A stretch of DNA of 24,909 nucleotides from a virus (IMGVR_UViG_3300023371_000071), one strand, 5' to 3'. Shown: positions 3,001-21,019, counted from the first letter of the stretch. Notes: generated from the sequence alone by a model not told the origin. Program-made: numbers and translations.

Positions 3001-4856
3001 TTTTCTTTTTTCATGTTAGTCTGACGTTTTTGCTCTAATTGCATTAACTCATTTAATGCAGCAATTTGTTCTTGATAAGCTGAAATTACTGCTTTAGCTT
3101 GCGCAATTTGTCCTTCTGACATATTTTTTGATGCAACTAATAATTGATCTTTTTTCTCAGAAACTTTTAAAGCTGCATTAATTTGCATATCTTGTGATGG
3201 ATCTAATACTGAACTATCTTTCTAAATTTTTTGTAACTCTTGACGCATCTGCGCTGAATTTTGTAAAAATCTAGTTTGTTCATTCATTCCAGTAAATGCG
3301 TCTTTAATTTTTGTAGTAATTTTTGTAATACCGTTTGCAATATCATCACTAAAAGCTTGAGTTAATGCACCACCAACAGTTCCGATAATACCAGCGACAC
3401 CGCCCATACCATCAATTAAGCCGCCAAGAGTAGTTACAATTTTTTCAATTGCATTAGTCACTCCGACCAAAGCTTTATCATTAATTAAACTACTAAAAAT
3501 TTTTTCCCAGGCTGCTTGAACTCTTCTGGATGCTGCCTCCCAAGATTCTGCTGCAATATCTGCCATTTCTTGTAAAGAACCTTCCGCATTTGTTGCAATA
3601 GACATATTGGACTTATACATAGAAGAATTTTCCATTAAGGCCATCCATTGAGTATATTGTCGTTTACCGGCAATCACTTGTGCTATAGCAGTTTGCTCTG
3701 CTCGTCCCATTTCTCCCCATTTGGCCATTAAATCTTCAATAATTGTTCCCATATCTCTCAATTCGCCGTTAGCATCTAAAATAGATACACCAACTTTTTC
3801 TAATTGAGAAGATACTTGTCCAAGATTTACCCCGTCTTCTAATGTCTCTCCAAGTTTCAAATCACCAATACGAGCAAAAATTGTTTTAAATGCAGTACCA
3901 ATAGATTCTGCGGATTCACGAGTAACAGAACTAACTGTAGCAATAATGGAAGAAACTTGCTCCATTGATACACCAACTGTATTAGAAGTTGCAGCTACTT
4001 TTTGCATAGAAGTTGCAATTTCTTCTAAGCTAGTGGCGGTTTTTGCACCAAGGGCTGCCATAATATCTACATATCGTTCAAGTTCATCAGCACCGACTTG
4101 ATAAGAGTTCCATACTGCAGTTAAATATTCTGACATTTCTTGTGCAGAAGTATTAAAACTTGAATTAGCTGCCTTAATTGTAATTGCTGCTTTTTTAGCT
4201 ACCTATTCTGCACTATCGCCCTATTGAAAATAAATCAAAGATGCATCAGCATATGCTTTAGTGGTTGTAGATAATTCTCTCGCCGCGCGATTAGCCTATA
4301 CAGCAAATCGAGACATATCTTCTGCACTTTGTCCAGTAACAATACGAATATTTGTTAAAGAACTATTTAAATCTTTTACATAGGACACAGCTCCAGATAA
4401 TGCACTTTCTAAACCATGTACCATTGTAGAAGATAATTCCCATTTTACTGTATTTTTTAAAGTCTGTCCCCATGCAGCTAATGTGCTATTCATGCGCTTA
4501 ATTGGTACTTCTGCACTGGCAATAACAGAAGCCAATTGTGAAAAAGCTGCTTGACCAGTTTGTCCTGCATCTAATAAAGCATTGCCTAATTGAGTAACAG
4601 ATGTGCCAGCTTTATTTAAACTATTAACAAATGTGTTAAGATTTAATTCACCAGTATTTACATTAGTAGCCTCTTGTAAATGCTTTTTTAAATCTTGCGC
4701 AGCTTCAGAAGCTTTTTTAAGTGCTGAATCTGAAATTGCTACTTCCAAATCCACAGTTGACACTTTATTTAAGCTTTTTTGTAATTCACTTAAAGCTTTT
4801 TTAGCCTAAGAGGTGTCAGCATTAAATTGTAATGTAAACTATCTGTTTCCAGCCAT
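1..4856 (-). CDS. Tape measure protein (3' end beyond window, >1618 aa, 18 in-frame TAG)
   Basis: Six ORF-track fragments (4296, 3222, 2943, 1761, 810, 249) share one frame and each ends in TAG. The hand-translated gaps contain no TAA/TGA. ATG at 4856 has an AGGAG SD. The protein has a TP901-type TMP core (ANRAARELSTTTKAYADASLIYFQ*G...LEEIATSMQKVAA...IGTAFKTIFARI) and Ala/Gly-rich hydrophobic segments at about 1830-2090. TAGs at 4839, 4806, 4296, 4221, 4203, 3222, 2943, 2793, 2721, 2703, 1761, 1611, 810, 654, 564, 249, 198, 99. Confidence 0.93.
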
Positions 4857-4877
4857 TTACACAATCTCCTTTCTCTC

Positions 4878-4912
4878 AAAAAAGCCTGACACAAATATTG
4901 TGTCAGGCTTTT
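4878..4912 (-). terminator. Intrinsic terminator between the 174-aa gene and tape measure gene
   Basis: Perfect 10-bp stem GCCTGACACA/TGTGTCAGGC (4884-4893/4899-4908) followed on the minus strand by T6. Confidence 0.85.
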
Positions 4913-4945
4913 CTCCTAATCTCTATCAAAGTTTATTTAAATAAA

Positions 4946-5470
4946 TTAACCAATCTTATCAAGAATATCCTTCACTAATCCAATCTTATCAGGTTGATCA
5001 AGTGTTTTCATAATCTCTTCAACATTCAATTTAGTAGCATCATAATCATTAGTTACAGTTTTCATCATTCCAACAAAAGAATTCAAATACTTAACAGTAT
5101 GCTCCGCACAATCTTCAATCGCATCAAAAATAGCATCATATTCATCTTCGGGAATTGCAGCAATAACATGATCAAGAACTTCATTAATCATTAATAGATC
5201 ATAAGTATTCGGAGCATTTTCTATCATCTTATCAGTAATAGAAATATTTGTATAAGTTTTTACAATTTCAAGAATTGCATAAACTTCTAAACGAACAGGA
5301 TTCAAAAATCCAGTATCGTCAATAGTCAAATTCAATACTCGCTCAACAAGAGCAAGCTTATCATTTACAGGAAGATACTGAATGACTTCAACTTCCTGTT
5401 CACCAATCTTAATAGTCTGTGGATCAACCTTCTTAATAGGGGTGACCGCTTTCAAAGAAACTTTAGCCAT
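4946..5470 (-). CDS. Hypothetical protein, 174 aa; tail assembly chaperone candidate
   Basis: Clean ORF with AGGAG SD, ATG start, TAA stop and no TAG. The chaperone call rests only on its position directly upstream of the TMP. Confidence 0.7.
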   Translation of the reverse strand: MAKVSLKAVTPIKKVDPQTIKIGEQEVEVIQYLPVNDKLALVERVLNLTIDDTGFLNPVRLEVYAILEIVKTYTNISITDKMIENAPNTYDLLMINEVLDHVIAAIPEDEYDAIFDAIEDCAEHTVKYLNSFVGMMKTVTNDYDATKLNVEEIMKTLDQPDKIGLVKDILDKIG

Positions 5471-5503
5471 GCTAATCTCTCCTTTTTCTCATTTTATGTA
5501 TAT

Positions 5504-5532
5504 ATTATACCAGAAAATTTTTTGTTTGTCAA
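5504..5532 (-). promoter_or_regulatory. Consensus sigma70/sigmaA promoter for the 174-aa gene
   Basis: TTGACA-17 nt-TATAAT with extended -10 TG (TTGACAAACAAAAAATTTTCTGGTATAAT). Confidence 0.85.
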
Positions 5533-5538
5533 GTTAAA

Positions 5539-6816
5539 TCATCGCGTTCGTCCAATCTAATCTAATATACTTTCTAAATCTGCTAATTCAGATTCAATAA
5601 GCTATACAATCTAATTTCGTTTAGGTCCTATTATTGTTGCTGAAAATTGTCGAGCCCAATACTACTTTTCTTCTAAATCCATTTTGGCTTCAAAATCTTT
5701 GATACGTAATGCAAATTTATATACAGTTTCCATACCCGCCGCGGATGCGCCATTACTCTTTACGCCATAATAAATAGTTTTACCATTAATATCTACTCCG
5801 CCTTCAATATCTTCTGATAAGAAACCTGGAGCATTATCTACTTGATGTAACCATCCTCGTACAAAATCATCAATGCGCTCATCCCAATTGCCATGATTAG
5901 GTTTTAAAAAATCTGGCATAATGTCAACTGGATTTTTTAAATTGGGATTATTCATAAGCCTTGTGCTAAAAGTTACTAAAATATTTGCATAAGTTTCTGC
6001 TAAATCACCTAAAGAGCTGATTTCTACTTTATTCCATTCTCCGCCAATTTTCCACATTAAAAGATTAGTGCCTTTATCTTGCGCAATTTCCATTCTACGA
6101 GATAACTCATCATAAAATGCGGTTAATTGAGTCCCAATAGTTTCTAAAGCTTTATCTATTAAAGTAAAATGTTTGCCATCTGAATCTTTAATAGTTTTAA
6201 CACGAGCGGTTGCACGACCACCATGACTCAAAGAAGCAAAGTCTGTATATAAATATTTTTCACTAAATTCTTTTGCATTACCCAATAAACGAATATCCAC
6301 AGTGCCTTTTTTACCTTTAACAACATACAAATATTCAATACGTCTATTCACTAAATCTAATAGTGCATTTTGAAACTCATTACGTGCCTATTCAGCAGTT
6401 AATAATAGTTTATCAATTGTTCTTTGTTTGCCTTCTAATACACGTAACTTTTGTCGCTGTGCTTCTGCTTCTTTTTTTATATTTAATAATTGTTCCATAG
6501 CTTCTCTGCCAGAATCATCCAAAGATAACTCACCAGACTAATATGCTCTAATTGTATTAATACGGATTTTTGCTATACCAGTGCGCTTCTAAGTTTCTGT
6601 TAATTGTGTCATATATTTAGAAGCTATAGCATTATATTCACTCACAGCTGCATCTAATACCTGATAAGCATCTACAAATAATTTAGCTTTTTCGCGTAAT
6701 ACCTATCCTTGTATATTATTTTCATCTACTAAAGCGTCAGAAGCTTTTGATAAAATATCAATAATATCATCTGCCGCTTTTTGGGCTGCTTCTGTTATAA
6801 AACTATATTTTCCCAT
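5539..6816 (-). CDS. Hypothetical protein, 425 aa (8 in-frame TAG)
   Basis: ATG 6816 with AAGGAG SD. The frame is open to TGA at 5539 except TAG at 6703, 6589, 6538, 6388, 5662, 5611, 5602, 5557. It contains the 229-aa ORF-track fragment, and the N-terminal half looks helical or coiled-coil. Confidence 0.85.
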
Positions 6817-6829
6817 AGTCAATTACTCC

Positions 6830-7363
6830 TTAAGACAAAGGCTTAATTTGATCTTCTACTCCATGTACGGCATCATAAGTTGCAGACAATCCGCATAATT
6901 CACTATTCATATTTAAACCAGAACAAATTCTTAATGTAACTTCTCCAATTCCAGTTAGCTTTTGACCATTTAACATAGCATCAATTTCGCCCATAATTTT
7001 ATAAGGACGTAAAGCAAAATCACCAAGATTCCAGTGATCTGGATGACATAAAACTTTAATTTCAATTGCACAATCTCTAAATTCAGGATTAGTGTCATTT
7101 GGCATAAAATCAGTCATAGATACAATAATATAATTAGGACATTCTTTATCAATAAAAATCCAAGGCACAATTTTAATTTGCTTATTGATCATAGACAATT
7201 TTTGTGCCATGGTTAAATTTTCTGCTTTTAAACAATCTTTTTCAGTATAATAAAGCAGTTTACATAATCTATCATTGTTTAGAATTTTATTAATAATGAT
7301 CGATAAATCTTTATCTACAGATAAAAAACTGGATTTTGGGAAAAAATTTTGTCCGACTTTCAT
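6830..7363 (-). CDS. Putative tail completion/terminator protein, 177 aa
   Basis: Clean ORF with AAGGAG SD and TAA stop. Size and position next to the tail tube gene fit a tail-completion protein; the function is inferred. Confidence 0.6.
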   Translation of the reverse strand: MKVGQNFFPKSSFLSVDKDLSIIINKILNNDRLCKLLYYTEKDCLKAENLTMAQKLSMINKQIKIVPWIFIDKECPNYIIVSMTDFMPNDTNPEFRDCAIEIKVLCHPDHWNLGDFALRPYKIMGEIDAMLNGQKLTGIGEVTLRICSGLNMNSELCGLSATYDAVHGVEDQIKPLS

Positions 7364-7387
7364 ATATCATTCTCCTTTTTCGCAAAT

Positions 7388-7426
7388 AAAAAAAAGGGAG
7401 ATACTAACCGAAGTTAGTATCTCCCT
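7388..7426 (-). terminator. Strong intrinsic terminator after the major tail gene
   Basis: 14-bp perfect stem AGGGAGATACTAAC/GTTAGTATCTCCCT closed by a C(UUCG)G tetraloop on the minus strand, followed by a T run. Confidence 0.92.
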
Positions 7427-7445
7427 ATATTGTCATAGTATTAAA

Positions 7446-8378
7446 TTATTCTTGTGCTTCATCCAACTGACCGAAGATACCAGCATCTTCAACGATCTGA
7501 AGAGCAGCAATAACCTTCTTGGTCTTGTCAAACTTGGTATAATCCGGGAAAGCATCCATGGTAAAGGTGAAGGTGGAAGGATCACCGGTAGGAGCCATGG
7601 TGAAGGTGAAGTTAGACTGAACCTTGCAGTTTGGAATAATGAACTCTGCAGGGAAGTCATCACCAGTTGCCTGATCACGGAACAAGGTAGAAGCTTCAAG
7701 ATAGTAAGAACCACCGAACTTACCAGCTTCAATATCAATCTGCTTTACGCCCTTAGCAGCTTCGATGTAGTAGTCAACATAAAGAATGTCGCCTTCTGCA
7801 ACAGTAGGAGCGTTCTGAGTGGGTAGCTTCAATTCAATATGACGAGCATCCTGATTGTAAGCGGTAGCCCAGTTATCAAGAACATCCTGAATAACCATTT
7901 CTGCACCAATATCAGTAGAAGCAATCTGCATAGGTAGCTTAGAAGCATCAATAGAGCCGTCCTCAGTCATGAGCATGATATACATTTCACCCTGATTAGA
8001 AGGCTTCTTCTCAAGCTTAACCTTTAGAGCGCCACCATCATTAACAACTTCCAACTGTTCGGTAGCATGAACATAAATCTTCTCATCATCAGAAGCATCC
8101 ATGAAACCAGCACCAGAAAGAATGGAGAAGCTCTCAGGAGAAATCAAAGCATCTTCCATAGTAAAGGTTACAACGCGGTCGCCTTCCCAAGCTACCAAGC
8201 GAGGATTACCTTTACCACCCTGAGCATAAACAGTAGTAGCAGTACCTTCAAGACTGGAAGTCTTCAAGGTATCGAAATAAAGAACAGGCATGTTCTTATC
8301 CAAATAAAGCTTACCGAAATAACCGCCGGCCTTCTTCTTTAGCACAACGTCACAAATTTCGCGTACACCAAATTTCAT
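7446..8378 (-). CDS. Major tail (tube) protein, 310 aa
   Basis: Beta-rich tube-like motifs (TTVYAQGGKGNPRLVAWEGDRVVTFTMEDAL; SNFTFTMAPTGDPSTFTFTMDAF), AAGGAGG SD, high-expression codon style, strong downstream terminator, no TAG. Confidence 0.8.
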   Translation of the reverse strand: MKFGVREICDVVLKKKAGGYFGKLYLDKNMPVLYFDTLKTSSLEGTATTVYAQGGKGNPRLVAWEGDRVVTFTMEDALISPESFSILSGAGFMDASDDEKIYVHATEQLEVVNDGGALKVKLEKKPSNQGEMYIMLMTEDGSIDASKLPMQIASTDIGAEMVIQDVLDNWATAYNQDARHIELKLPTQNAPTVAEGDILYVDYYIEAAKGVKQIDIEAGKFGGSYYLEASTLFRDQATGDDFPAEFIIPNCKVQSNFTFTMAPTGDPSTFTFTMDAFPDYTKFDKTKKVIAALQIVEDAGIFGQLDEAQE

Positions 8379-8403
8379 AGGTTTTTTCCTCCTTAAAATT
8401 CAA

Positions 8404-9150
8404 TTAATGGATATTTTTCATCCAATCATTGGGCTTGCCATCGGGTTTACCTCCGGCCAAGCGAGACCGTATGTCTAAATCCCAACTAATCCATAAGCCA
8501 TATCGTTCAATTAAATCATATAGCTAATAAACAGTTAGATCTAAACACTTATCTAGACTCATTGAATTTAATCCAATAGTAAGAATAGATACATAACGAG
8601 CTAACACGCTTCCTTCCCCTTCTCCTCGTAGCTGGGCTGCTCTCTAACGACCTTTCATTAGCTTGGCCGCAATTTGAGCGGCTCGCTCATTAGCAGGGTT
8701 GAAATTAGAATTCTATCCACCCGCAGTATTATTCATACCAGCCATATTTGTTAATACAGCCTAAAAAGCATCAAAATTATTTTCATCTAAAACAAAGTGG
8801 TGCTAAGTTTCAGCATTATTAAAATAGATGCTATGAGGAAGAAATTGAGCGGTATACCCAGGAAAAAGTAATACAAACATTGAAATCATTGCATTTCGTT
8901 TTTCATTTACGTTTTTCATTTCTGGGTCTGTTACCAACGTCATAAATATCTAAAAATTATTCATAGCCTATAGAGCAGAACTGCCCTATGGGTTTGCAGC
9001 TATGATTATCTATTTATTGAAGCATAGTATTTGTAACGATGAAAAATACTATTCTTCGCCTAAGAAAGAAATTTCTCTAATAGTTGGCTAATGTAAACTT
9101 GTACCTAATTCTGGAATTGGGATATCGGTTCCAGCCATTAACTGCAACAT
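8404..9150 (-). CDS. Hypothetical morphogenesis-region protein, 248 aa (11 in-frame TAG; absent from the ORF track)
   Basis: ATG 9150 with GGAGG SD. Hand translation MLQLMAGTDIPIPELGTSLH*PTIREISFLGEE*...LYDLIERYGLWISWDLDIRSRLAGGKPDGKPNDWMKNIH, TAA at 8404. It fills the 8379-9165 gap almost exactly. TAGs at 9088, 9049, 9010, 8986, 8968, 8950, 8803, 8761, 8713, 8644, 8524. Confidence 0.88.
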
Positions 9151-9165
9151 GCATACCCCTCCCTC

Positions 9166-10110
9166 TTAAAACAGCGATTCAACAACAACTGTTTTTACAA
9201 GAGGTCCATAATGAATTTCAAATTGTCCACTAACCATCGCGGTCCATTGAACAGTTAACACATTTTTATCTGTGCTCCAAGTTAATACATCAGCAACCTC
9301 TTTATTATCAGAAGCTAACGTAATATACCAATAGCAATCGGGATCAATAAGATTAGAGGTATAAGATACACTTTGCAAAGGTTTAATAAATGTTTCTCCA
9401 GAAATTTGCGGCGCCAATGGTGCCTCAACCTCTTTATTGGGATCAACAACCTCTACAAGCAATTCATCATGATGACAATCATAATCTTCTTCTGCAGTCA
9501 CTTCCAATACTCCTGGTGTACTAATAGCATCAGGAGCTTGCACCATCCAAGTGCGTCCCGCAAATGAAAATCTACAGTAGCGCTCAAATAATTGTCGATT
9601 TTTTTCTGTATTTGGTACATAAAAAACTAATGACATATTCGGCACATCTGCAACAATACCAGCCTTTTGAATTGTATTAATTTTAGTTTCAACTGGTCCT
9701 CTAATTGAGCCATAGATTGTTAATTTATCTCCAGTGTCTGGATCTTCTACTTCAATCTCTTGGCATCGTCTAATATTGCCCCTAAAGTAGGCTAACTCCG
9801 TTAACTCTTGTTTAAGAATAATCCAATGGATATGAGAATCCTTTGGCCATTCAAAAGTATCACCCGGCTTAAAGTCATGTTTCCAATCGACCGATACAAT
9901 TTTTTCATCATAGTCAAATTTCACTTTATCCGGATTGATTAATGCCCTACACCATTCAGCATCTTCTGCATCTTTTCTAATCCAACCAGATTGATAAGAA
10001 TACAAAAGTGCACGATGAAAAGAGCGTTCTTTATCTCGAATCATGCGCTCACGCTGGCGATCATTATTCGCGTAAATCGCACGAATTCGCATTCTATCTA
10101 AATTATCCAT
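9166..10110 (-). CDS. Putative head closure/neck protein, 314 aa
   Basis: Clean ORF with TAA stop and no TAG. It lies between the adaptor and tail genes and has a beta-rich, possibly Ig-like, C-terminus. The function is inferred from synteny. Confidence 0.6.
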   Translation of the reverse strand: MDNLDRMRIRAIYANNDRQRERMIRDKERSFHRALLYSYQSGWIRKDAEDAEWCRALINPDKVKFDYDEKIVSVDWKHDFKPGDTFEWPKDSHIHWIILKQELTELAYFRGNIRRCQEIEVEDPDTGDKLTIYGSIRGPVETKINTIQKAGIVADVPNMSLVFYVPNTEKNRQLFERYCRFSFAGRTWMVQAPDAISTPGVLEVTAEEDYDCHHDELLVEVVDPNKEVEAPLAPQISGETFIKPLQSVSYTSNLIDPDCYWYITLASDNKEVADVLTWSTDKNVLTVQWTAMVSGQFEIHYGPLVKTVVVESLF

Positions 10111-10393
10111 CCAATAAAGAGTTAGCTAATTCAGTTAATAAAGAAATAGAACTAAATACAGCTACTCTATATGTCATAAAATCTGTGGTCTGCGGCAAAC
10201 CTTCTAATTTCGATAAAAGAATTAAAAGATTCAATTGATCGCCAAACATTGCCTATAGACCATACAATTCATTCAAAACAGAGCCTAATTGCTTTTGCCA
10301 ATCCTCATTATTTTCTCGCATTGGTAGCAATTTCCAAACTTGGTTTATTAAACGTCTTAAATCTTTATTGAGAGTTTCATTAGAAAAAATCAT
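10103..10393 (-). CDS. Hypothetical protein, 96 aa (1 in-frame TAG; absent from the ORF track)
   Basis: ATG overlaps the upstream TGA (ATGA). MIFSNETLNKDLRRLINQVWKLLPMRENNEDWQKQLGSVLNELYGL*AMFGDQ...LANSLLDG, TAG at 10253, TAA at 10103 overlapping the next start region. Confidence 0.8.
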
Positions 10394-11028
10394 TTTCCAA
10401 TTGCCTCCCATCCCCACATATCATCACAGTTACAATCTTCTGTGTTAGAAGTTTTATCACTAGTGATTGGGATCCAGTCTGGATCATCGCAATCGCAATT
10501 AATATTGCCATTTACATTAGAACCAGTACCAGTACCCACTGTTGTGGAAGTGGTAGCACCTCCATCAAATACACTTTGTCTGAAGATACTCCAATTAGAT
10601 TCAATTCTACCATCACTGGTATTTCTACGACGTTTATATAAACGTTGTGCGTGAGTTGACTCACGCACATTCTCTGATTTTAATTGTAATAGTTTAGATA
10701 AATGATTGGCTTGAGAAGTCATTTTGAAGTCTGAACCAGAATACTTCATTCGAGTATTCTCAATAGAATTGATCTATCGCTCAAGCCAAGCAGTTTTCAT
10801 CAAAAGAGCTAAAATATGAATTTCTTCAATCGTTAGATCGACATTATACTGTTCCAGCTCTTCGTCGTAGTTATACAATTGAAAACGAGGAAATTCAAAA
10901 AATGGGATGGCATCCAATAGAAACTGTTTTACATCACGCAAAGTATCTTCATAGGTCAACTCAAGATACATATCATCTGTAATCTTGCCGAAGAATCTAT
11001 TATAGATAGTTTCAAAGGATGTTGCCAT
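10390..11028 (-). CDS. Putative head-tail adaptor/connector, 212 aa (1 in-frame TAG)
   Basis: The 84-aa and 119-aa fragments share one frame and are joined through TAG 10774 (AWLER*INSIENTRMKYSGSDFKMTSQANHL). GGAGG SD, TGA stop, helical adaptor-like N-terminus two genes downstream of the MCP. Confidence 0.75.
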
Positions 11029-11031
11029 TGA

Positions 11032-11622
11032 TTACGCCTCCTGCTTTGGAGTGACTACCTTATACTGCGGGACTGCGGTACGACGGCCAGTAGCAGGCTG
11101 TGCTTCCTCAGTCTTCACACGACGCACAGGAGTAATTGCTTCGGCTTTCACGCCAGACTCTTCTTCCTCTGCCTTGCGAGCTTCTTCCAAATGCTTAATC
11201 GCTGCGGTTACGTCGAAGCCCATCTTTTCTTTGATAGCTTCACGCTTACGATTATCATTTACTGGAAGTGCCACAGCGTGCTTCTTAATTAAATCAAGCA
11301 CGCCTTCGGGAGCAAAATCCAAACAATCTAAGAATGCATCAATAGAACCTTTTTCAAGTAGATCAATAACACCCTTTTCATCCAAATAATATTCAGGCTC
11401 AACTTTTACAGACATTTCTTGTAGAGCGGACTCATCCTGAACAAATAGATGCTTGCGAATTAGATTCATGCCGCCGGGCAAATAAGACAGAGCATTTAGT
11501 TCGTCCATAGAAATGGTTTTTACTTCGTTGGGAGCAAACTCGCGACGAACACCCATTTCCGGCACACTGTATACAACCATAGAACTACTTCTATTCTTTA
11601 CAGAAACTTTCTTATCACTCAT
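11032..11622 (-). CDS. Hypothetical virion-associated protein, 196 aa
   Basis: Clean ORF with AAGGAG SD, TAA stop and no TAG, directly after the MCP terminator. Confidence 0.8.
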   Translation of the reverse strand: MSDKKVSVKNRSSSMVVYSVPEMGVRREFAPNEVKTISMDELNALSYLPGGMNLIRKHLFVQDESALQEMSVKVEPEYYLDEKGVIDLLEKGSIDAFLDCLDFAPEGVLDLIKKHAVALPVNDNRKREAIKEKMGFDVTAAIKHLEEARKAEEEESGVKAEAITPVRRVKTEEAQPATGRRTAVPQYKVVTPKQEA

Positions 11623-11643
11623 ATTTTAAAACTCCTTTTACTC

Positions 11644-11671
11644 AAAAATGGGGAGGGAGTGATCCCTCCCC
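11644..11671 (-). terminator. Intrinsic terminator after the major capsid gene
   Basis: 9-bp stem GGGGAGGGA/TCCCTCCCC with a 4-nt loop, followed by ATTTTT on the minus strand. Confidence 0.8.
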
Positions 11672-11686
11672 GATATATTTATTTAA

Positions 11687-12733
11687 TTAACCAGAAACCT
11701 TGTCACCATCATAAACCTTGGTATCCAAGGAGTTGTTTACATAAACGCAAATGTCAGGAGTCATAACGACGCCAACGCCAACCTTCTTGTAAACCTGGAT
11801 TTCACGGCTACGATCCTTGTTAACATACTCGTCAACAATGGTAGCACCTTCCATAACAACCTTAGCTGGCTTTACAGAACCAGGTAGGATGTAGCAATGG
11901 GAAGGATCAATAACCTTCTCGGTATGAGTAGCATCAGTGAAACCTTGTGGAAGAATAACAACAGGATGATTCTTATAAGAAGCAAAGCGACCATTATTCC
12001 AGATAACATCCTTCATGTTGTCAGACCACATATTAGCATTCTCAGGACGAATGGTGCTAGCAAACTCCTCAGTGCAGTAGATGGTAGGAGTACCATAAGC
12101 TGCAGCAATAGAAATAAGACGATCGAATGCCTTCTCGTCGAAAGCAGAAGCCTCAACCTTATTCATGGTTGGAAGCTGATTCAAACCAGTCTTAAGAGCC
12201 TGACCGATCTCCCAGTAAATAAGCTCGTCCATGCCGTCCATAACGATCTTGGTAACTTCAGCAAAATCAGCACGACCATCAAGGAACTCCTCAAGACCGA
12301 TCTGAGCTGCGCCACCAATAGCGCTGGTCTGCATTTCGATAGCAGTATCCTTACCAAGCTTAAAGACTTCGTAGATACCTGCAAGTCCGACCTTGGTAAT
12401 AAACTGCTTAGCACGCTGACGATCATGGTGACGATGGAAGATAGCCTTATCGCCCTGACCAATGGTCTTGATCTCAGCAAACTGACCATAGTTTTCCATA
12501 ACCTTCTTAGGAAGTACTTCATCCATAGTCTGCTCAATTAGAGCAAAAATCAAATTCTTATTCTCACGATACTGAGCGAAAGTGCCAGCATACTCGTTGA
12601 GTTCACGGCGAAGAGTCTCATTAAGAGCATCATAAGTCAAATTCTCGCCGTTAAAGCTGTAAGCAACCGGAGCGGAGCGATCAGCTTTAGCAGTAGCCTT
12701 CATAAGCTTCAAAAGTTCATTTCTTTCTAACAT
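11687..12733 (-). CDS. Major capsid protein (HK97-fold candidate), 348 aa
   Basis: Size, position after the protease and accessory gene, strong SD, high-expression codon bias and downstream terminator. No TAG. Confidence 0.85.
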   Translation of the reverse strand: MLERNELLKLMKATAKADRSAPVAYSFNGENLTYDALNETLRRELNEYAGTFAQYRENKNLIFALIEQTMDEVLPKKVMENYGQFAEIKTIGQGDKAIFHRHHDRQRAKQFITKVGLAGIYEVFKLGKDTAIEMQTSAIGGAAQIGLEEFLDGRADFAEVTKIVMDGMDELIYWEIGQALKTGLNQLPTMNKVEASAFDEKAFDRLISIAAAYGTPTIYCTEEFASTIRPENANMWSDNMKDVIWNNGRFASYKNHPVVILPQGFTDATHTEKVIDPSHCYILPGSVKPAKVVMEGATIVDEYVNKDRSREIQVYKKVGVGVVMTPDICVYVNNSLDTKVYDGDKVSG

Positions 12734-12756
12734 AGCTAGTTTCTCTCCTTTCCGAA

Positions 12757-13461
12757 TTACTGAATACGCATGACCTTAACGGCCTTCTGCATATCGCCTA
12801 AATTGTATACCTTAACAACCTGCCACAACATGCCGGACTCAGCCTCGGTCTTAGCCAAGTAGCCCTTTGCATTAGGAGCAAGAATGTCACCAAGAGCAAG
12901 AGTTTCCTCTGCAACACAGTTAGTAGTAAAGATGTCGCCCTCATGAGTCTTGAATAGACGAGGAGTCATCATACCCTGAACATCAGAAAGTAGCTGAGGC
13001 TGATTTAGATTCTCAATCTCATAGGACTGACCAATCTTCAAATGCATACGACCAAAGTCATCAGCAGCACCCTCATCAGTATAACCAGCAGCATAAACAT
13101 CGGTCTCAGCACCGATAGTCTTCATCTGGTTGTCAACATCGCCCTTAGCGCCAACTGGGCTATAAACATAACCATTGTAGTCACGAGCGATCATAGCGAA
13201 GTCCTGGTCGGTCTCCCATGGAGCATAGACCTTAACTTCATTGAAGATAAGCATCCATTCGCCCTTACCTTCAAAATCAACAGTACCATTTACATAGTTG
13301 TACTTAGCAAACTGACCATTCTCTAGGATCTTGATATCCTTATGAGCAGGCAACTGAGCATAAATTTCACCAGTGCGCTGTGCGGAGAGATGGTTAGGCT
13401 CAACCTGACCGAAGCCATAAGTTACATACTTAGCTTCAGGAGATAATCTTTTAAAAGCCAT
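12757..13461 (-). CDS. Capsid accessory/decoration protein candidate, 234 aa
   Basis: Clean ORF between scaffold and MCP with the same high-expression codon style, AGGAGG SD and no TAG. Confidence 0.6.
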   Translation of the reverse strand: MAFKRLSPEAKYVTYGFGQVEPNHLSAQRTGEIYAQLPAHKDIKILENGQFAKYNYVNGTVDFEGKGEWMLIFNEVKVYAPWETDQDFAMIARDYNGYVYSPVGAKGDVDNQMKTIGAETDVYAAGYTDEGAADDFGRMHLKIGQSYEIENLNQPQLLSDVQGMMTPRLFKTHEGDIFTTNCVAEETLALGDILAPNAKGYLAKTEAESGMLWQVVKVYNLGDMQKAVKVMRIQ

Positions 13462-13487
13462 TTTTTAGCTCCTCCTTTGATATCTAA

Positions 13488-14897
13488 TTACATAGTTTTG
13501 GCAGTCTCACGCACGGCCTTAATCCAGGCTGGTGCATTGTCATTGCCATCGTCGTTGTCACCAAGGGAATAAACCATTGGATCCTGTTTTTCGGGTTCTT
13601 GTTTATCGTTATCAAGGCTGAAATTAACCTTGTTACGAACACAAATAATAGAAAGCTTGGCTTCAATATCATCCAAGGAATAGTTGTCAATATTAGCAAC
13701 AACATCAGCCTTGTCAGTTTCAGTCAACATATAGAAGCCATCAATCATAGCCTGCTTTTCCTTACGATCAGCAGTGGCCTTAAACTCACGAAGTGGAGCG
13801 ATTTCCTTCTCAAGAGAAGCACACTTTACTTCGAGAGCAGCATAATTCTTGGCGAGCTCAACATATTCTGGAATCTCTTCAAGATTATACTTCTTTTCTT
13901 TATTGCAAGAGCATTCAGACGCAGGTTTTCCGCACTTCGGGCACTTCTTGTCATCCTCGTCCTCTTCTTCATCATCGGACTTGGCGAACTTCTTCTTACC
14001 CTTCTTCTTCTTGTCCTCGTCTTCGTCTTCATCCTCCTCAGACTCTTCAGATTCCTTCTTATCCTCTGAATCATCTTCGTCCTTCTTTGGAGGGAATGGA
14101 GGCTTTTTCTCTTCTTTCTTTTCCTCTTCCTCGTCGGGCTTCTTCTTGAACTCAGTCTCTTCGGCTGAATTCTCGATATTCTGCTCCTCCTCAGTCATAG
14201 GGGTCTTAATATCCTCATTCATTTGAGTTTTTCCTCCTTCTTGTAAAGCTGTTTGTAATTCTTTAATCATGGAGAACAATTGTTCCTTGAACTCTCCATC
14301 AATAGAGAACTGCGAAGCGATACCCGCTCCCTCAAAGCAAGGTTCGACGTTCTCTCCAAGAATACACAATTTTTGGATAATTGCTTCATTGATAATGAAA
14401 AACTTAGGCATTCCATTATCGTCTGTTGTCCACTTCCCTTTTGTAAGTTTATTATGAAGTTCCATGGACTGATTATTCCCCTTCTCAATGATACGCTTAG
14501 CCTCTGGGTACACATCATCCCAAATATAACCTTCAGTCATAAGGTACTCATGCTCAACACCATCATCTAAGAATTTCTGGAACCAGACTTTTGCTCCCAA
14601 ATCAACGAAACCATATGGTCGAGTGGTATCAATAATATCAAACTTACCATTTGAAACATCAATCATACGATTATGCTCTTCAAAATCACCAGTAGCCTCA
14701 TTAAAAAAACCAACAATAGGGCAACCTGGCAATGACTTCGCCATATCAGTGGCAACAGCCTTGGTAATTACACTGTGGTTTCTATTGGGATCTTCTCCCA
14801 CATAACACACTTTAATCTGACACTTAGAGATTAAAGGGTTAACAGGAGTGAAGTTAAGCAATTCAACAGTAGCTTCAACTGGAACACTAATATGCAT
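13488..14897 (-). CDS. Prohead protease-scaffold fusion, 469 aa
   Basis: N-terminal HK97/U35-like protease region (KVCYVG..NRNHS...QSMEL...LCILG.NVEPCFEGA), then an acidic/basic low-complexity region and a coiled-coil C-terminus. It lies between portal and capsid genes. Confidence 0.8.
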   Translation of the reverse strand: MHISVPVEATVELLNFTPVNPLISKCQIKVCYVGEDPNRNHSVITKAVATDMAKSLPGCPIVGFFNEATGDFEEHNRMIDVSNGKFDIIDTTRPYGFVDLGAKVWFQKFLDDGVEHEYLMTEGYIWDDVYPEAKRIIEKGNNQSMELHNKLTKGKWTTDDNGMPKFFIINEAIIQKLCILGENVEPCFEGAGIASQFSIDGEFKEQLFSMIKELQTALQEGGKTQMNEDIKTPMTEEEQNIENSAEETEFKKKPDEEEEKKEEKKPPFPPKKDEDDSEDKKESEESEEDEDEDEDKKKKGKKKFAKSDDEEEDEDDKKCPKCGKPASECSCNKEKKYNLEEIPEYVELAKNYAALEVKCASLEKEIAPLREFKATADRKEKQAMIDGFYMLTETDKADVVANIDNYSLDDIEAKLSIICVRNKVNFSLDNDKQEPEKQDPMVYSLGDNDDGNDNAPAWIKAVRETAKTM

Positions 14898-14912
14898 TAT
14901 TTAACTTCCTCC

Positions 14913-16520
14913 TTAATTAGCAGATTCCTTATTCTAAATAGTTTTTTCAGATTTCTGTCCATCTGGTTTTTCAGGACGACCGCCTTTATTTTCAGAGGAA
15001 GAACCTGTCTAAGAACTTTGAGCTTTCTTCTAAGCCTTCTATCCTAAGATGTCCTCACCATTCATTGTAGAACTCATAATCGGTGGGATCATAATTTCAT
15101 ACAAGTGCAATACTTCATTTTCAAAGTGTGCAGTAGCAATAATAGCACTTTGAGAATGACCCATCGCAATCTGCGGTAGCATCTTGGAGTAACCAATCTG
15201 CACTTGTTCCTTATACATCTTCGCAAGCTCGATGTAGTTGTAGACTGTCGTCTCCAACATATACACTCTAAAGTTATACTTCTTCTTACCGGGGAACTTG
15301 TGACGAACGATCTTGTTTAACATATTACCAAACTGTAGAATCAAATTGCGCATTGAAGCCTCATCATTTAAGATAGACTTTTCAAGAGCAATATTACCAT
15401 CTGTATTAAACAAGTTCTAAGAAACACCAAATTGGTTATACAAAGTTCTTTCAACCTTTTCCAAATCATCGGTAGAGGTTGTAGTATTTTTATCCGCCAA
15501 GTCCGCAACAGAGGTATCCGCAAATGTAGTCATAACGTCTACACCAACCGCACGCTTCAACATCTGAACCGCATTGTTGTGAATATCTTTTGCTTCATCA
15601 ACGTCAAAAATCAAATCACCATTCTTATCAAGAGGAAGTTTCTGAATTACAATTTTCAACAATTTCTGCATGGTCTTGCGACGGTCTAAATCCTGCGCTG
15701 CATCCAAATCCAAAATCGCGGGAATCGCATTTGCAAGAATTGGATAGTCACTACCATTCAGATTTAATTTAATCGCACAAGCGGGATCAAGTAAATACCA
15801 CCCAGCTTGAGAGCCAGATTCATCTTTAAGTTTGCCTTTCTTGTATAAAACATAACCTTTGGCAAACTCTTCTGGGAACATCTTTAAAATTCTAAGTCGC
15901 TGTTCAATAGTTGGGAACTTATCATCAAAGAACTTCATATTGAACTCAACGGCCGGCGAATCGCCAACCATATAACGACTGCGACAATAAGCAACTGGCA
16001 ATTCCTGCAAGGTCATGCCATTAGTGGTATCTACAATATAACCATAGTAGCAACCATTCTTAATAACCTAAAGGGCTACATTGCCGCACATGTATTTAAT
16101 ATTTGAGTTATCTAAATAATTAAGAACCTTAGAAAACTCACTTAGAATTTTTTCTTCCTTGATAGAATCATCTTCAACATATGGAACAACATACCAGTCA
16201 TATCTATACAAAAATGCAAAATATTTGCATAGACGTTCATAGATACCACTTACCTCATAGAAGTAATTTGATATTTCACGCAAGGTGTTATAATCCTTAG
16301 TAGCTAATGCGCGTAAAACCGCATTCTTGTCACCATATGTACGATTGGTCTTTTTTAAAGCACCCAAATCTAAAATAGCATCATCAAGGGTTTGTAGACC
16401 AATACGAATCTTGCTAAAATCAAGTGGCTCATTATTTTCCGGATCAATATAATCAATATCCCTGCGAGGCGGAGTTAATGCAAAACCTTTAGCACGGATT
16501 TCATCCTATCTTCTTCGCAA
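14913..16520 (-). CDS. Portal protein, 535 aa (7 in-frame TAG)
   Basis: Three same-frame fragments joined through TAG at 16506, 16068, 15417, 15039, 15030, 15009, 14934. TTG start at 16520 lies 8 nt from GGAGG, with TAA at 14913. It has a typical GGRP C-terminal motif and lies between terminase and protease. Confidence 0.88.
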
Positions 16521-16533
16521 CCGTCACACCTCC

Positions 16534-16890
16534 TTAATAGCCAGCCTTTGTCATAATATAATCATAAGTAATAAGATTCTCTTCTGTATACGGAATTTCA
16601 ACTAATGGGATTTCCTTTAATGCACAAAAACGACGTTTCTTGTTATCATTGAACTACTGTTGATAAAAACCTTTTGTTCCACCAAATTTACTTGATGGTT
16701 CATAATGTTGTTTACCTTGATATTCAATAAGGAAATCAATATTTCCATCATCGTCAAATACACAAAAGTCAAACCGCAAAGGACGACCATTCGGGCTATT
16801 TAAACCCTCAAATGATTGTTCCATTGTGAACCGCAATCCCGCCTCTTCCAGAATCTCTTGAATCTTGATTTCTCCACGAGACGCTCTCAT
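16534..16890 (-). CDS. Small DUF559/Vsr-like PD-(D/E)xK endonuclease-fold protein, 118 aa (1 in-frame TAG)
   Basis: Motifs S.GE..I...L, LRFDF.VF, LIEYQGKQHY. Readthrough of TAG 16654 adds FNDNKKRRFCALKEIPLVEIPY, which completes the domain, and the stop is TAA at 16534. Confidence 0.8.
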
Positions 16891-16902
16891 AATGGACCTC
16901 CC

Positions 16903-18645
16903 TTAGTTCATAAACATCATTTCAGAAATTCTGCCTTTGCGTTTACGCTTTTTACTATCTTCCTCTTGTTTAATATAGTACAAGCCATATTCAAAAGCAG
17001 AGAACTTATCTTTCTTAATTGACTTATTAGCTTGCTTTAAAATGATGTTAACACCTTCGTTTTCTTCACGAAGATTCATCATCTCTTCCTTCAATATGGA
17101 AGTTAGAGTAAACGGTTTAAGATATTCCGCCCTCTCTTCAGGTTTCATATCTTGTCCACGCTTAGTTCCCATTAACTTAACTTTTGCCACACGTTCATCA
17201 ATCAGCATCTTTACTTTACCAGAAGATAACTGAGTTTGCGCATTCGCGTGAGCTTCAGTGTTAATAGGTGCATTGGCCTTAATAATATACATAGCATCAA
17301 ACTCACAGGCATCAGTGCGGAACTTCTTATAATAATTTTCTTCATCGTTCTCAACACCAAAGTCAGGATAAGTTTCATTAGTATCCGGATCAATTTGAGT
17401 TTTTACCATATAGTCAACAAGACCAATACCAAGACCATTACCGTCGATAACAATACGACGAGCCTTGTATTTATAGAACAACTTCTTCAATGCAATAGCT
17501 TGATCTTCAAAGTGTTCATCATGTAAAGTATAAATATTTACCAAAGTCTTTAATGATACACCCGCAGTCTGTGGTGTTACCTTAAATACACAAACTACAG
17601 TATCGCAACCTTTACGACCTACGTCAACCGCAAGTACATAATACGCAGACTTCATAGATCTACCAGAATACTCGTATTCAGGCTGCTTTAAGATTCTATT
17701 ACGATCAAATTGCTCAGCACGGAAGAACGCATCTTCAATAGTGCCAGACCATTTAGATTCATACTCACGGTCAAAAGAGGACTCATTAAATGTACCGTCC
17801 AATTTCAAGTCGCGCACAAAGTTCTTATCAAGTAATTTCATAAGAACAGGAATTCTCCAAGTACCACCCATAATACAAAACTTCTCCGGTTGCGTAATCT
17901 GTCCAACAAGCATTTGAATCAACTTATCATAAGCGAAAGTATTCTTCCAGCCCGCAGTTGTAACAAAGATCTGACTTTTATTCAGAACCTCTTGATCATC
18001 AGAAGTACCATCCGGCAATCTGCGAGAAACGTTCATAACTGGAATAATAACTTCGTTTAGGATAGTTCCATCTACGCCAACGCACTCCTCAACAAGTCCG
18101 CCATGTCGGCGCTTACCTCTTGATTTTTCGCTAGCACCCAAGTTATCAATATAAGAACCACTTCGGAAAATATATTTACAATAGTCTTTACCTTCTAATG
18201 TTTTACCACGGCCCCAGTCAATCTCTTTTGCGAAGCCCGGCACAAGAGTACAGATTTCCTGGACTTTTTCTTTCAAAATACCAGAAGCCTGTTCCTTACC
18301 ACCAGAAGTAACAAATAGTTTAGATCCCGCATATAGTACTGCACGAGTCATCAAAATCAAAACCGCAAGGAATGATTTTGAATAAGCACGCGGAAAGACC
18401 GCATACACGTATTTGTAACGCATAGCGGCCCGCAAAAATACTCGTTGATAAAAGAATAAGTTAAGCGTTTCCTTTGGAGGATTTGGCTGCCATTTACCTG
18501 CCATGAAGTCAACAAACATGTCAGGGTATTCGCGCCAATAGGCAATATACTAACGTGCGACCGGAATAACGGCCCGCACACGCTCTTCAGATAAACCAAT
18601 TTTCTATCGGTCGTTTGAGAGGTTTAATAAGTCTTGTAAAGCCAT
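16903..18645 (-). CDS. terL: Terminase large subunit, 580 aa (2 in-frame TAG at codons 14 and 32)
   Basis: Walker A-like FPRAYSKS, Walker B-like GGLVEE, RNase H-like nuclease motifs YVLAVDVGR, IDGNGLG, KDKFSA. The start extends to ATG 18645 (MALQDLLNLSNDR*KIGLSEERVRAVIPVAR*YIAYWREYPDMF) with a GGAGG SD, through TAG 18604 and 18550. Confidence 0.92.
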
Positions 18646-18646
18646 A

Positions 18647-19819
18647 TTATTCCTCCTTTAACATTTCCATCATCGTTAAGGCATCATCTTCAGCCTCTTG
18701 TTCTAAGAATTCATAGTGTTCGGCAAAGTCATCATCTTTCAATTCATCAAGAGAATCCATATCCATAATTTCATCTTCATCATCAATATCTTCATCTTCT
18801 TCGCGTTCGGCTTCGCGCTGCAATGCCTTAACCGCAGATTCGATAAGATTACCAAGATTCATCTCTTCAGTAACAAGAGTGTTAGTGTAGCCACGCAAGT
18901 CCGCAAGAGTTTCATCAACTCTATCCTTCGGCTTGTCGGTATAGAAACGAGGAATAAATCCCTCTTCTTTTTCACATAATAAAACCAGTTCAGAAATTGA
19001 GTTAACAAACTCGCCAGCCTCAGCCTTATTCTGAACCGCAGTAAATTTAGCGGATTTCATCAAAGCGTCATAAACCTTAGACATCTTTTGGAAACCTTCG
19101 ATGTCGCCCAAGTCAATCAGTTGATGAGCCTTGATTGAAGTTTTACAAATAAGCTTTAAATAGTCTTCATGAGATGGAGTCTGAATATCGAACGATTGCA
19201 TCATCTCTTGATAATACTTCTCTAACTGAACCCATTCATACGGTTTGTAGGTCTTGCCCCACTTAATCGCCAAGTAAGTTTTATCTTCTTCAGTTAGATC
19301 ATCTTCGAATCCCACTGGCTCAAAGGCATCAATCGGAGCAGGCTCCTCTCGTGTTGCTTCTAGTTCAGCGGGTCTTTCAGGTGTCCTGTTTGCGGCGAGA
19401 GCTTCCTCAATCTCTTCTCCAGTATAGCCTTGTCGAGCCATAACGTCTCGCTTCCGCGCATCCATTTCAGCCTTAATCTTTTCAGTATCTTCCCATGAAT
19501 AATTTTTGTATTGATTCAATTTCATTTTGGAAAGGTAACGACCCAAGATGGTCATACCAGTAACCTTGGTGCGGTCCTTGCCATAACGTTCAAGTAGAGT
19601 ATTCCATTCCTCTTCAATATAAGGAACATTGATCTCTTCCAAAATCCATAAATAAGTTTTCGGATTCCAATTGTCTACATGTCGAGTGATGCATTTCTTA
19701 CATTCAGGTAATTTACCATCGTCGGGGTATCTATCCAACCGATTAGATGTGTAAAATTGATCAGTATCCATCGTTCGACCGCAGACCTTACAATAATAAG
19801 TTTTATTTAAGTCTGCCAT
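18647..19819 (-). CDS. N-terminal Zn-finger protein, 390 aa; terminase small subunit candidate
   Basis: CKVC...CKKC near the N-terminus, acidic C-terminus, and it abuts terL. No TAG. The TerS role rests on position only. Confidence 0.6.
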   Translation of the reverse strand: MADLNKTYYCKVCGRTMDTDQFYTSNRLDRYPDDGKLPECKKCITRHVDNWNPKTYLWILEEINVPYIEEEWNTLLERYGKDRTKVTGMTILGRYLSKMKLNQYKNYSWEDTEKIKAEMDARKRDVMARQGYTGEEIEEALAANRTPERPAELEATREEPAPIDAFEPVGFEDDLTEEDKTYLAIKWGKTYKPYEWVQLEKYYQEMMQSFDIQTPSHEDYLKLICKTSIKAHQLIDLGDIEGFQKMSKVYDALMKSAKFTAVQNKAEAGEFVNSISELVLLCEKEEGFIPRFYTDKPKDRVDETLADLRGYTNTLVTEEMNLGNLIESAVKALQREAEREEDEDIDDEDEIMDMDSLDELKDDDFAEHYEFLEQEAEDDALTMMEMLKEE

Positions 19820-19824
19820 TCACA

Positions 19825-20886
19825 TTACTCCTTTGCCTTCTTGTTCTTGGCATTCCGGCAACACTTACACAAAGAATACCATCCATCTCTTGAACCTTTG
19901 TTTATGGAAAAAAATCTTGAATGGGCTAACTTAATTTGCCCACACCTAGTACATTTCTTCCACTTCCCATATTCTTTTTCAGTATAATACCAGGTCAGCC
20001 ATTCATCTGTATAATAAGAGGCAATGAGCTTTGGAATTTTATTACGCCATAACGAAGAAATATATTCGAGCGAATGAGTGAAGCCGAATTCCTTTTCAAT
20101 CATTTCCTTGATATCAACATTAGATTGCCCGTCAATTTTATATTCTACAATACGACGGTATAAAGGATAGCCGGCAAGTGAATTATCTACTAATCTATCA
20201 AAGTCTTCCATCATATACCAGGTATCACCCTCGAACCTGCCATAGCATCCTTCTTTTAGTTTAGAATAATTGCATAAAATAGTGCTAATAACAACGGGAT
20301 TGATAAAGGACACACCTTCATACTGGATTTCTCCATTTTCATCTACCCATTCATCCCATGGGAGTTTAATATAGTGTCCGATATTTCTTGTAATATTTCG
20401 CGCAACAATTGGTTGGCGGTAGGCGTTTTTAATAAGATATTGATCCTTCCGCAATTCGATAATAGTTGATTTGATAATATAGGCTGCTCGCCCAGTCGCA
20501 GTTTTAGACAGCTTTTCCCAATATGCTATGCTGTCGCGCAACTGACGTAATGGCTCAATTTCTTCTAAATCTTTTTTCGTAATTGTTACTTTCGGCTAAA
20601 ATATTACATTCTTATCGTTCGTTACTAAATTATATATACCATCTTCGCCATTCTCCAACTGGCCAACAAGACCCTCGAAAGATGTTTCTCGTTTATTGAC
20701 AGTCGCCATACGGTTGTCGGTGAGAATCTTTCGCTCCTTCTTCTCTTGTTTCTCCATACAAAGAACCAAATAATCAGCAAGGATTTCCAGATATTGCTCG
20801 CTTGGGTCGGGAGTCTCTGTTAAAATCTATTTCACCAATTCATTTCGCTCTTGAGGAGATTCAATCGTATAATCTAGCTTGATTAT
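19825..20886 (-). CDS. Putative DNA-binding regulator, about 353 aa, with HTH-like region and C-terminal Zn ribbon (2 in-frame TAG, non-ATG start)
   Basis: The frame is open from the AGGAGG SD (about 20896-20901) to TAA 19825 except TAG 20827 and 20596. It has CTRC...CKCC at the C-terminus and a region resembling sigma region 4 HTH (YRRIVEYKIDGQSNVDIKEMIEKEF...EYISSLWR). There is no ATG near the SD, so the start coordinate is uncertain (ATA 20886, ATT 20889/20892, or TTG 20895). Confidence 0.7.
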
Positions 20887-20912
20887 AATAATCAACCTCC
20901 TTCTATGCCTCT

Positions 20913-20941
20913 ATTATACCACAAAAATTTTCATGAGTCAA
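20913..20941 (-). promoter_or_regulatory. sigmaA-type promoter heading the packaging/structural module
   Basis: TTGACT-17 nt-TATAAT with extended TG. Confidence 0.8.
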
Positions 20942-20959: not shown

Positions 20960-20988
20960 TTGAAAATTTAAAAAAAATTTGATATAAT
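20960..20988 (+). promoter_or_regulatory. Divergent sigmaA-type promoter
   Basis: TTGAAA-17 nt-TATAAT with extended TG, back-to-back with the leftward promoter. Confidence 0.7.
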
Positions 20989-21019
20989 GTATATAGAAAT
21001 GATAAAGGAGATGACTTCA

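Follow-up and report, generated by a model that had tools for sequence, protein, structure and literature searches.

We analyzed how in-frame TAG codons are distributed over the late structural genes of a virus known from a 24,909-nucleotide stretch of DNA (IMGVR_UViG_3300023371_000071), which we refer to as the window. All genes between positions 3 and 20895 lie on the minus strand, and when TAG is read as a sense codon they form one unbroken late structural module. The module starts with a putative regulator, a 390-aa gene, the large terminase (TerL), an HNH endonuclease, and the portal protein. Next come two head genes, of 469 aa and 234 aa (the latter g234), and the major capsid protein (MCP). 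They are followed by a 196-aa gene and four small or medium-sized genes, and then by the tail tube gene, three more genes, and the gene of the tape measure protein (TMP). The features are listed below, with GC3 denoting GC content at third codon positions.

3–4856, minus strand: TMP, 5′ part of the gene, which leaves the window; 18 in-frame TAGs, the first at codons 6 and 17; GC3 0.18; N-terminus conserved among relatives
4946–5470, minus strand: 174-aa gene, YomO-like (weak match); no TAG; sigma70-like promoter upstream at 5532–5504
5539–6822, minus strand: 427-aa gene without a family match; 8 TAGs, the first at codon 40
6830–7363, minus strand: 177-aa virion protein, YomW-like; no TAG in the window, 0 to 6 among relatives
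7395–7426, minus strand: terminator-like hairpin (14 bp stem and T run) directly 3′ of the tail tube gene
7446–8378, minus strand: tail tube protein (YomU_Tube), 310 aa; no TAG; CAG:CAA 12:1; AAG/Lys 0.91; GC3 0.40
8404–9150, minus strand: 248-aa gene, YomV-like; TAG at 11 of 16 Gln codons, the first at codon 21
9166–10110, minus strand: 314-aa gene; no TAG in the window, 0 to 7 among relatives
10103–10417, minus strand: 104-aa gene; 1 TAG, at codon 55
10390–11028, minus strand: 212-aa gene; 1 TAG, at codon 85, in a fully conserved Gln column
11032–11622, minus strand: 196-aa gene; no TAG; intermediate class by its clade TAG/Gln
11650–11671, minus strand: terminator-like GC-rich hairpin directly 3′ of the MCP gene
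11687–12733, minus strand: MCP (HK97 fold, YonB family), 348 aa; no TAG; CAG:CAA 11:1; AAG/Lys 0.96; GC3 0.42
12757–13461, minus strand: 234-aa head gene (g234); no TAG; CAG:CAA 13:0; a single TAG among the 262 Gln codons of the clade
13488–14897, minus strand: 469-aa head gene (YonD_N); no TAG in the window; TAG-bearing in the clade
14913–16520, minus strand: portal protein; 7 TAGs, at codons 5, 151, 368, 494, 497, 504, and 529
16534–16890, minus strand: HNH endonuclease, 118 aa; 1 TAG, at codon 79
16903–18645, minus strand: TerL, 580 aa; TAG only at codons 14 and 32
18647–19819, minus strand: 390-aa gene (YonG_N); no TAG in the window, 0 to 10 among relatives
19825–20895, minus strand: putative regulator, first gene of the late operon, similar to PHROG 5767 ("sigma factor"); start codon uncertain; 2 TAGs, at codons 23 and 100
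20913–20941, minus strand: sigma70-type promoter match, TTGACT-17-TATAAT with TG, ahead of the late operon

Identity of the module and decoding of TAG

The phage, from gut or rumen, is a large SPbeta-like siphovirus within the phAss-1 group that uses genetic code 15, and the window holds its late structural operon. The 348-aa protein has the HK97 fold in its predicted structure model, and the model of the 310-aa protein matches siphovirus tail tubes, including that of the SPbeta-type phage SPR; because this second model is of low confidence (pLDDT 60), the tube identity rests on agreeing top matches and a Pfam match and not on geometry. Precomputed Pfam matches on a 100%-identical 40.8-kb ENA contig name YonB, YomU_Tube, YonD_N, YonG_N, YomV, and YomW, all structural proteins of Bacillus phage SPbeta, whose structural module thus has these families in common with the window. 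Local Pfam and NCBIfam searches gave no usable match for the structural genes or the regulator, and PDB sequence profiles gave none. A homolog search with the regulator returned >6,700 unnamed relatives, and its label derives solely from PHROG 5767.

SPbeta-type phages with known hosts in the phage collection searched have MCPs only 26 to 37% identical to that of the window; the nearest described phage is phAss-1, with an MCP 52% identical. The proposed Phassvirus group around phAss-1 and its wider monophyletic group comprise siphoviruses of ∼130 to 170 kb from gut metagenomes in which TAG interrupts TerL, portal, and TMP and whose large tRNA sets include tRNA-Sup(CUA); some of these large gut siphoviruses read TAG as Gln, whereas no recoding was found in Enterococcus phage EF1 (Babkin et al. 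2023, PMC10607447). That paper lists TAG-bearing ORFs (open reading frames) and holds no analysis of copy number or position. The structural module of the group is syntenic with the window, which nevertheless represents a sublineage separate from phAss-1, mostly derived from IMG/VR, with MCPs 77 to 85% identical to those of loci L002–L015. With the MCP as query we retrieved 40 related loci, of which 27 are recoded; these were reduced to 21 nonredundant representatives, window included, which we refer to as the clade. The module is mosaic, in that the nearest MCPs are those of L002–L004 (85%), and the nearest TerL is that of L016 (95%).

TAG encodes glutamine in the phage of the window, as in genetic code 15. 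The genes of the window were aligned with their counterparts from 27 additional representative loci, 20 of them recoded and 7 standard-code, with TAG masked as X. Among columns that hold a TAG and are otherwise conserved, the residue is Q in 43 of 59, an ∼5.8-fold enrichment over background, and Ser, Leu, and Tyr are not enriched at the same 59 columns. The in-frame TAGs of the window lie in conserved genes, and full-length ORFs are restored once TAG is read as sense. Every complete gene between 3 and 20895 ends with TAA or TGA, never with TAG. The ORFs of G002, a complete relative of 165.7 kb, were called with TAA and TGA as the sole stops, and its 118:34 tally is therefore uninformative on TAG termination.

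No tRNA gene was found within the window. A single tRNA(CUA) lies within a large tRNA island in each of three relatives (G001, G002, and G004). These genes (L072:13356–13448, L073:10186–10280, and L075:12625–12714, respectively) are 90 to 95 nt long and have a long extra arm, the loop of which resembles a Gln anticodon loop (CUCUGAA or CUCUGAC in two relatives and GUUGAAG in the third); one of the three also has a Gln-like acceptor end (U1-A72, G73). In G004, a 72-nt AT-rich tRNA-like gene with the ochre-type anticodon UUA lies 130 nt downstream of the tRNA(CUA) (L075:12843–12914). The tRNA(CUA) gene of G002 is on the strand of the early and middle genes, which suggests that the suppressor is made early. 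By virtue of the code itself, TAG-bearing genes need this suppressor tRNA for completion.

The late genes appear to share one operon behind the one sigma70-type promoter at 20941–20913. That promoter stands back to back with a second near-consensus sigma70-type promoter at 20960–20988 on the plus strand, and the pair divides the TAG-using late operon from a plus-strand cassette (20987–22526) that holds no in-frame TAG. In phages, the genes with the highest expression are usually followed by a terminator hairpin. The hairpins behind MCP and tail tube sit inside the long late operon, where they probably set the stoichiometry of the mRNA of the two most abundant proteins.

TAG use across the genes of the module

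The preliminary description of the window had reported that TAG occurs in low-copy essential genes, often near the N-terminus, and never in high-copy genes. Its TAG counts and first TAG codons proved right within one or two codons of start-site choice (TMP 6, portal 5, TerL 14 and 32, 248-aa gene 21); for the regulator, the first TAG is codon 23 from the TTG start used here and ∼20 from a later start. In the window, none of the 56 Gln codons in the MCP, tube, 234-, 469-, and 196-aa genes is TAG, compared with 51 of 239 elsewhere (Fisher p = 1.5e-5). The contrast sharpens when TAG is set against CAG alone, with 0 of 47 in the same five genes and 51 of 93 elsewhere (p = 1e-12). Four further genes are also TAG-free in the window, those of 174, 177, 314, and 390 aa, for which high-copy status has no support. 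Orthologs of the 177-, 314-, and 390-aa genes use TAG about as frequently as other low-copy genes, and the 174-aa family is TAG-poor clade-wide.

The same ranking holds across the 21 recoded representatives. TAG makes up 0.019 of Gln codons in MCP, 0.011 in the tube, and 0.004 in g234, followed by g196 (0.05), g469 (0.10), and g174 (0.11), whereas all other families range from 0.19 to 0.45. In 17 of the 21 genomes, MCP, tube, and g234 hold no TAG at all. The avoidance is not absolute, as three TAGs occur in the MCP of L034, and the tube (codon 53) and g469 (codon 27) hold one TAG each in strain L087, which is 96.5% identical to the window. The statement that high-copy genes never contain TAG is thus correct for the window and fails in the clade. 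L087 retains all window TAGs, both early TerL TAGs among them, and adds TAGs at TerL codons 129, 382, and 498 and at portal codon 172; the restriction of TerL TAGs to codons 14 and 32 is therefore specific to the window strain. All six TAG differences between the two strains in well-aligned genes are extra TAGs in L087, and at TerL codons 382 and 498 the change from CAA in the window to TAG in L087 involves two bases each.

TAG fraction falls as GC3 rises (rho −0.61 across families; window rho −0.37, p = 0.13, not significant). The depletion nevertheless persists within GC3 strata of the clade. At GC3 ≥0.25, TAG accounts for 0 to 1% in the high-copy class and 19 to 29% in other genes; in the lowest stratum (0.15–0.25), the values are 10% for the high-copy class, represented by 5 genes, and 32% for the others. 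As a control for mutation bias we used TTG/(TTG+CTG), which reflects the same first-position choice between C and T. This ratio is flat; only the 427-aa family, with two members, reaches 1.00, all others lie at 0.76 to 0.94, and across families there is no correlation with TAG/(TAG+CAG) (rho 0.14). TAG/(TAG+CAG) itself is 0.49 to 0.83 in most low-copy families (0.27 in g174) and 0.00 to 0.02 in MCP, tube, and g234. In low-copy families, TAG therefore looks nearly neutral, being near the TTG:CTG benchmark.

The three most depleted families are also set apart by other codons. Across the clade, AAG/Lys is 0.74 to 0.80 in MCP, tube, and g234 and 0.13 to 0.36 elsewhere, and CAG/(CAA+CAG) is 0.83 to 0.86 compared with 0.10 to 0.34. 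The conserved, GC3-independent depletion of TAG in these three families, together with their optimization toward AAG and CAG, supports the earlier suggestion that bulk subunits avoid suppressor load. In the seven standard-code relatives (L019, L025, L027, L030, L035, L036, and L038), MCP, tube, and g234 have no AAG, CAG, or GC3 optimization, with AAG/Lys at 0.23 to 0.29. Either the optimization arose together with recoding or the hosts of the standard-code relatives differ.

Outside the structural module, the complete relative G002 has a TAG/Gln of 0.07 in early and middle genes at GC3 0.24, with no TAG in 36 of these 52 genes. Its late genes reach 0.365, and its late high-copy genes only 0.02; among the late genes, TAG fraction correlates with GC3 at rho −0.41. 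The early genes do not have the AAG and CAG optimization of the high-copy genes. Two patterns are therefore superimposed, namely the known early/late split of code-15 phages and purifying selection against TAG in the most translated late genes.

The bases around TAG were also compared. No difference was found between the +4 base after TAG and that after CAA or CAG (p = 0.07). The bias at the −1 base mostly reflects a generic pattern of T-starting codons and CTAG avoidance. Neither base has any bearing on a gate. In low-copy late genes of the 21 representatives, the base before an in-frame TAG is C in 3% of cases, compared with 7 to 14% before other T-starting codons, as expected of CTAG avoidance; low G before TAG is common to all T-starting codons.

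TAG position within genes

We tested position by permuting TAG among each gene's own Gln codons. The first 40 codons of the window genes hold nine TAGs, with 6.3 expected (p = 0.067), and the summed log of first-TAG positions gave p = 0.09. Taken singly, the first TAGs of TMP (p = 0.19), portal (0.31), TerL (0.18), and regulator (0.32) are unremarkable. The mean normalized rank of TAG among Gln codons is 0.53, that is, without 5′ skew, the exceptions being TerL (0.09) and the regulator (0.29). The first TAGs are as early as the preliminary description had counted, but in the window they are no earlier than chance allows.

In the clade, a shallow 5′ excess emerged. With alignment columns as units and the window excluded, the TAG share of Gln codons is 0.40 up to codon 40 and 0.30 later (p = 0.019), and with a cut-off at 60 codons the values are 0.42 and 0.29 (p = 0.001), an excess of ∼1.3- to 1.4-fold. 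Along successive codon bins the TAG fraction runs 0.32, 0.38, 0.32, 0.26, and 0.26. The excess amounts to 0.42 versus 0.29 (p = 0.017) in the four families regarded as initiators of assembly (TMP, portal, TerL, and regulator) and to 0.39 versus 0.32 in the other TAG-bearing families, which alone do not reach significance (p = 0.25 at 40 codons and 0.08 at 60). Two families, g177 and g314, have the opposite trend. AAG/Lys also climbs along genes, from 0.25 to 0.30 (0.35 without the tape-measure gene). A shallow 5′ excess fits a model of cost, in which ending a chain after 20 codons is less wasteful than ending it after 400, and it does not set the initiators of assembly apart from other families.

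Gene by gene, the first TAG in relatives comes earlier than permutation expects in TerL (p = 0.017), the regulator (p = 0.005), and TMP (p = 0.046), values uncorrected for shared ancestry. Portal has no position bias (p = 0.20, mean rank 0.50). Among recoded representatives scored, window included, 9 of 11 regulators have a TAG within the first 34 codons.

The preliminary description had proposed to check whether the N-terminal TAGs are conserved in recoded relatives. We ran this comparison and found TAG in only 7 to 38% of relatives at the N-terminal sites that carry it in TMP, portal, TerL, and regulator of the window, the rest having CAA, CAG, or other residues. Portal codon 5 is TAG in 6 of 19 relatives and CAA in 11 of 19. 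The corresponding TAG counts are 5 of 13 for TMP codon 6, 4 of 11 for regulator codon 23, and 1 and 2 of 14 for TerL codons 14 and 32. Codon 21 of g248 is TAG in 53% of relatives. N-terminal TAGs are no better conserved than internal TAGs at conserved Gln columns. Nor are the four families enriched beyond the benchmark, with TAG/(TAG+CAG) at 0.57 to 0.83 and TTG/(TTG+CTG) at 0.76 to 0.94.

Interpretation of the TAG pattern

We consider the most probable explanation, with a probability of about 0.7, to be selection against a costly codon in high-copy genes, superimposed on the known code-15 lock on late genes, with no dedicated assembly checkpoint. TAG would be a nearly neutral Gln codon in low- and medium-copy genes, present at about the frequency set by a first-position bias of T over C. 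Purifying selection would strip it from the most translated genes, MCP, tube, and g234, and less strictly from g196 and g469. The suppressor tRNA likely competes with release factor 1, such that each TAG would cost yield, and the cost would scale with the amount of protein made. Top-expressed genes would be expected to favor AAG, CAG, and higher GC3, as MCP, tube, and g234 do, and to be followed by terminator hairpins, as MCP and tube are. That portal, TMP, TerL, and regulator have early first TAGs would mostly mirror where the Gln codons of a gene lie and how many TAGs it has, and the 5′ excess would parallel the general rise of optimal codons along genes, early termination being cheaper than late. 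In classical codon-bias theory, nonsense-error cost included, the genes with the highest expression are depleted of a costly codon. The present case resembles such translational selection in that TAG depletion covaries with preferred codons and preferred codons rise weakly along genes. It differs in that the codon is a reassigned stop and its competitor is a release factor and not a near-cognate tRNA; expression levels here are, in addition, inferred.

Several observations weigh against this explanation. The 5′ excess in clade columns at both cut-offs, and the early first TAGs of TerL, regulator, and TMP in relatives, leave room for some genes being selected for early TAGs. Because the AAG, CAG, and GC3 gradient is missing from the standard-code relatives, a difference in host could account for the optimization of the three high-copy genes. 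We infer copy number and the cost of TAG from protein identity. Avoidance in high-copy genes is also not universal, as in crAss-like phages a tail-tube family is reported to be preferentially recoded (Borges et al., bioRxiv 10.1101/2021.08.26.457843).

The preliminary description had favored a designed translational gate, in which selection keeps N-terminal TAGs in portal, TerL, TMP, and regulator so that these proteins are made only after suppressor tRNA has accumulated, bulk subunits being exempt. Its best support is the early placement in TerL, regulator, and TMP across relatives and the column-level excess in the four initiator families; the retention of all window TAGs in the 96.5%-identical strain and the position of a putative regulator, with a TAG near codon 23, as the operon's first gene behind a host-type promoter are also consistent with it. 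We nevertheless regard a gate on low-copy initiators as unlikely, since the window has no significant 5′ bias, portal is unbiased, the excess in noninitiator families is similar in size, though not separately significant, and g177 and g314 are reversed. The N-terminal sites alternate with CAA and CAG, and their TAG frequency is not above the TTG:CTG benchmark. All these genes appear to share one operon, and the strand of tRNA(CUA) in G002 suggests that the suppressor is expressed early. Furthermore, when portal is missing, MCP and scaffold end up in dead-end shells, and a gate that held back portal while sparing MCP would therefore do harm. Just as doubtful is a fail-safe, in which selection keeps the 5′ TAG excess, strongest in the putative late regulator and TerL. 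The element of it that deserves most weight is the operon's first gene, the putative regulator behind a host-type promoter, with its early TAG in 9 of 11 recoded representatives. If this reading were true, the host-type promoter could fire at any time, but without phage tRNA(CUA) regulator and TerL would be cut off within their first 20 to 35 codons, and late development would be locked to the code switch, for example as a guard against leakage ahead of the switch or under nonpermissive conditions.

A difference in timing and not in cost, such that high-copy genes are TAG-free because their translation must start before the suppressor works, as with TAG-poor early genes, seems to us slightly less probable still. 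The early and middle genes of G002, TAG-poor though AT-rich, indicate that a TAG-free gene can mark suppressor-independent expression. However, MCP and tube lie inside the same minus-strand operon as the TAG-rich genes, with no strong internal promoter match ahead of either, and it is the high-copy genes and not the early ones that are optimized toward AAG and CAG, which points to expression level. We reject, as very improbable, neutral tracking of composition, in which TAG would follow the AT-richness of each gene or a low-expression codon bias. The negative correlations with GC3 across families and among G002 late genes are what it predicts, but the window correlation is not significant, the depletion persists within GC3 strata, TTG:CTG is flat, and the AT-rich early genes of G002 are TAG-poor. 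The least probable account, also rejected, is a recent import of the TAG-free, GC-richer capsid block and the tube from a standard-code phage. The different nearest relatives of MCP and TerL would fit it, as would the contiguity and GC-richness of the capsid block. Against it, the TAG-free state occurs in 17 of 21 lineages spanning ∼50 to 85% protein identity, the tube gene behaves the same while lying apart from the capsid block, and the MCP, tube, and g234 genes of standard-code relatives are rich neither in AAG nor in GC at third positions.

In the published model for code-15 gut phages, recoding regulates late or lytic genes, and TAG-bearing genes await the code switch (Borges et al., bioRxiv 10.1101/2021.08.26.457843; Peters et al. 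2022, PMC9523058). The window clade resembles these phages in having in-frame TAG in structural genes, largely standard early and replication genes (in G002), and tRNA(CUA) in relatives. The Borges preprint tested families for enrichment in recoded codons and found the crAss-like tail tube enriched, whereas in the window clade tube and MCP are the most depleted. The word "capsid" is absent from that preprint, and we found in it no analysis of high-copy depletion or of TAG position within genes. None of the papers examined describes that high-copy virion genes avoid the reassigned codon.

Selection against a costly codon involves no new mechanism, and the idea of a lock on late genes is already published. 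Stop-codon recoding is usually framed as an on/off lock on late genes, and these data temper regulatory readings of TAG placement. For annotation, TAG-free genes inside a recoded block flag major virion proteins. The interpretation also yields a testable number, in that the TAG share without selection should be about the TTG share of TTG+CTG. Together, the data suggest that the reassigned stop within a recoded late operon acts for the most part as one more synonymous codon, with a slight cost, and that expression level sets how much it is used.

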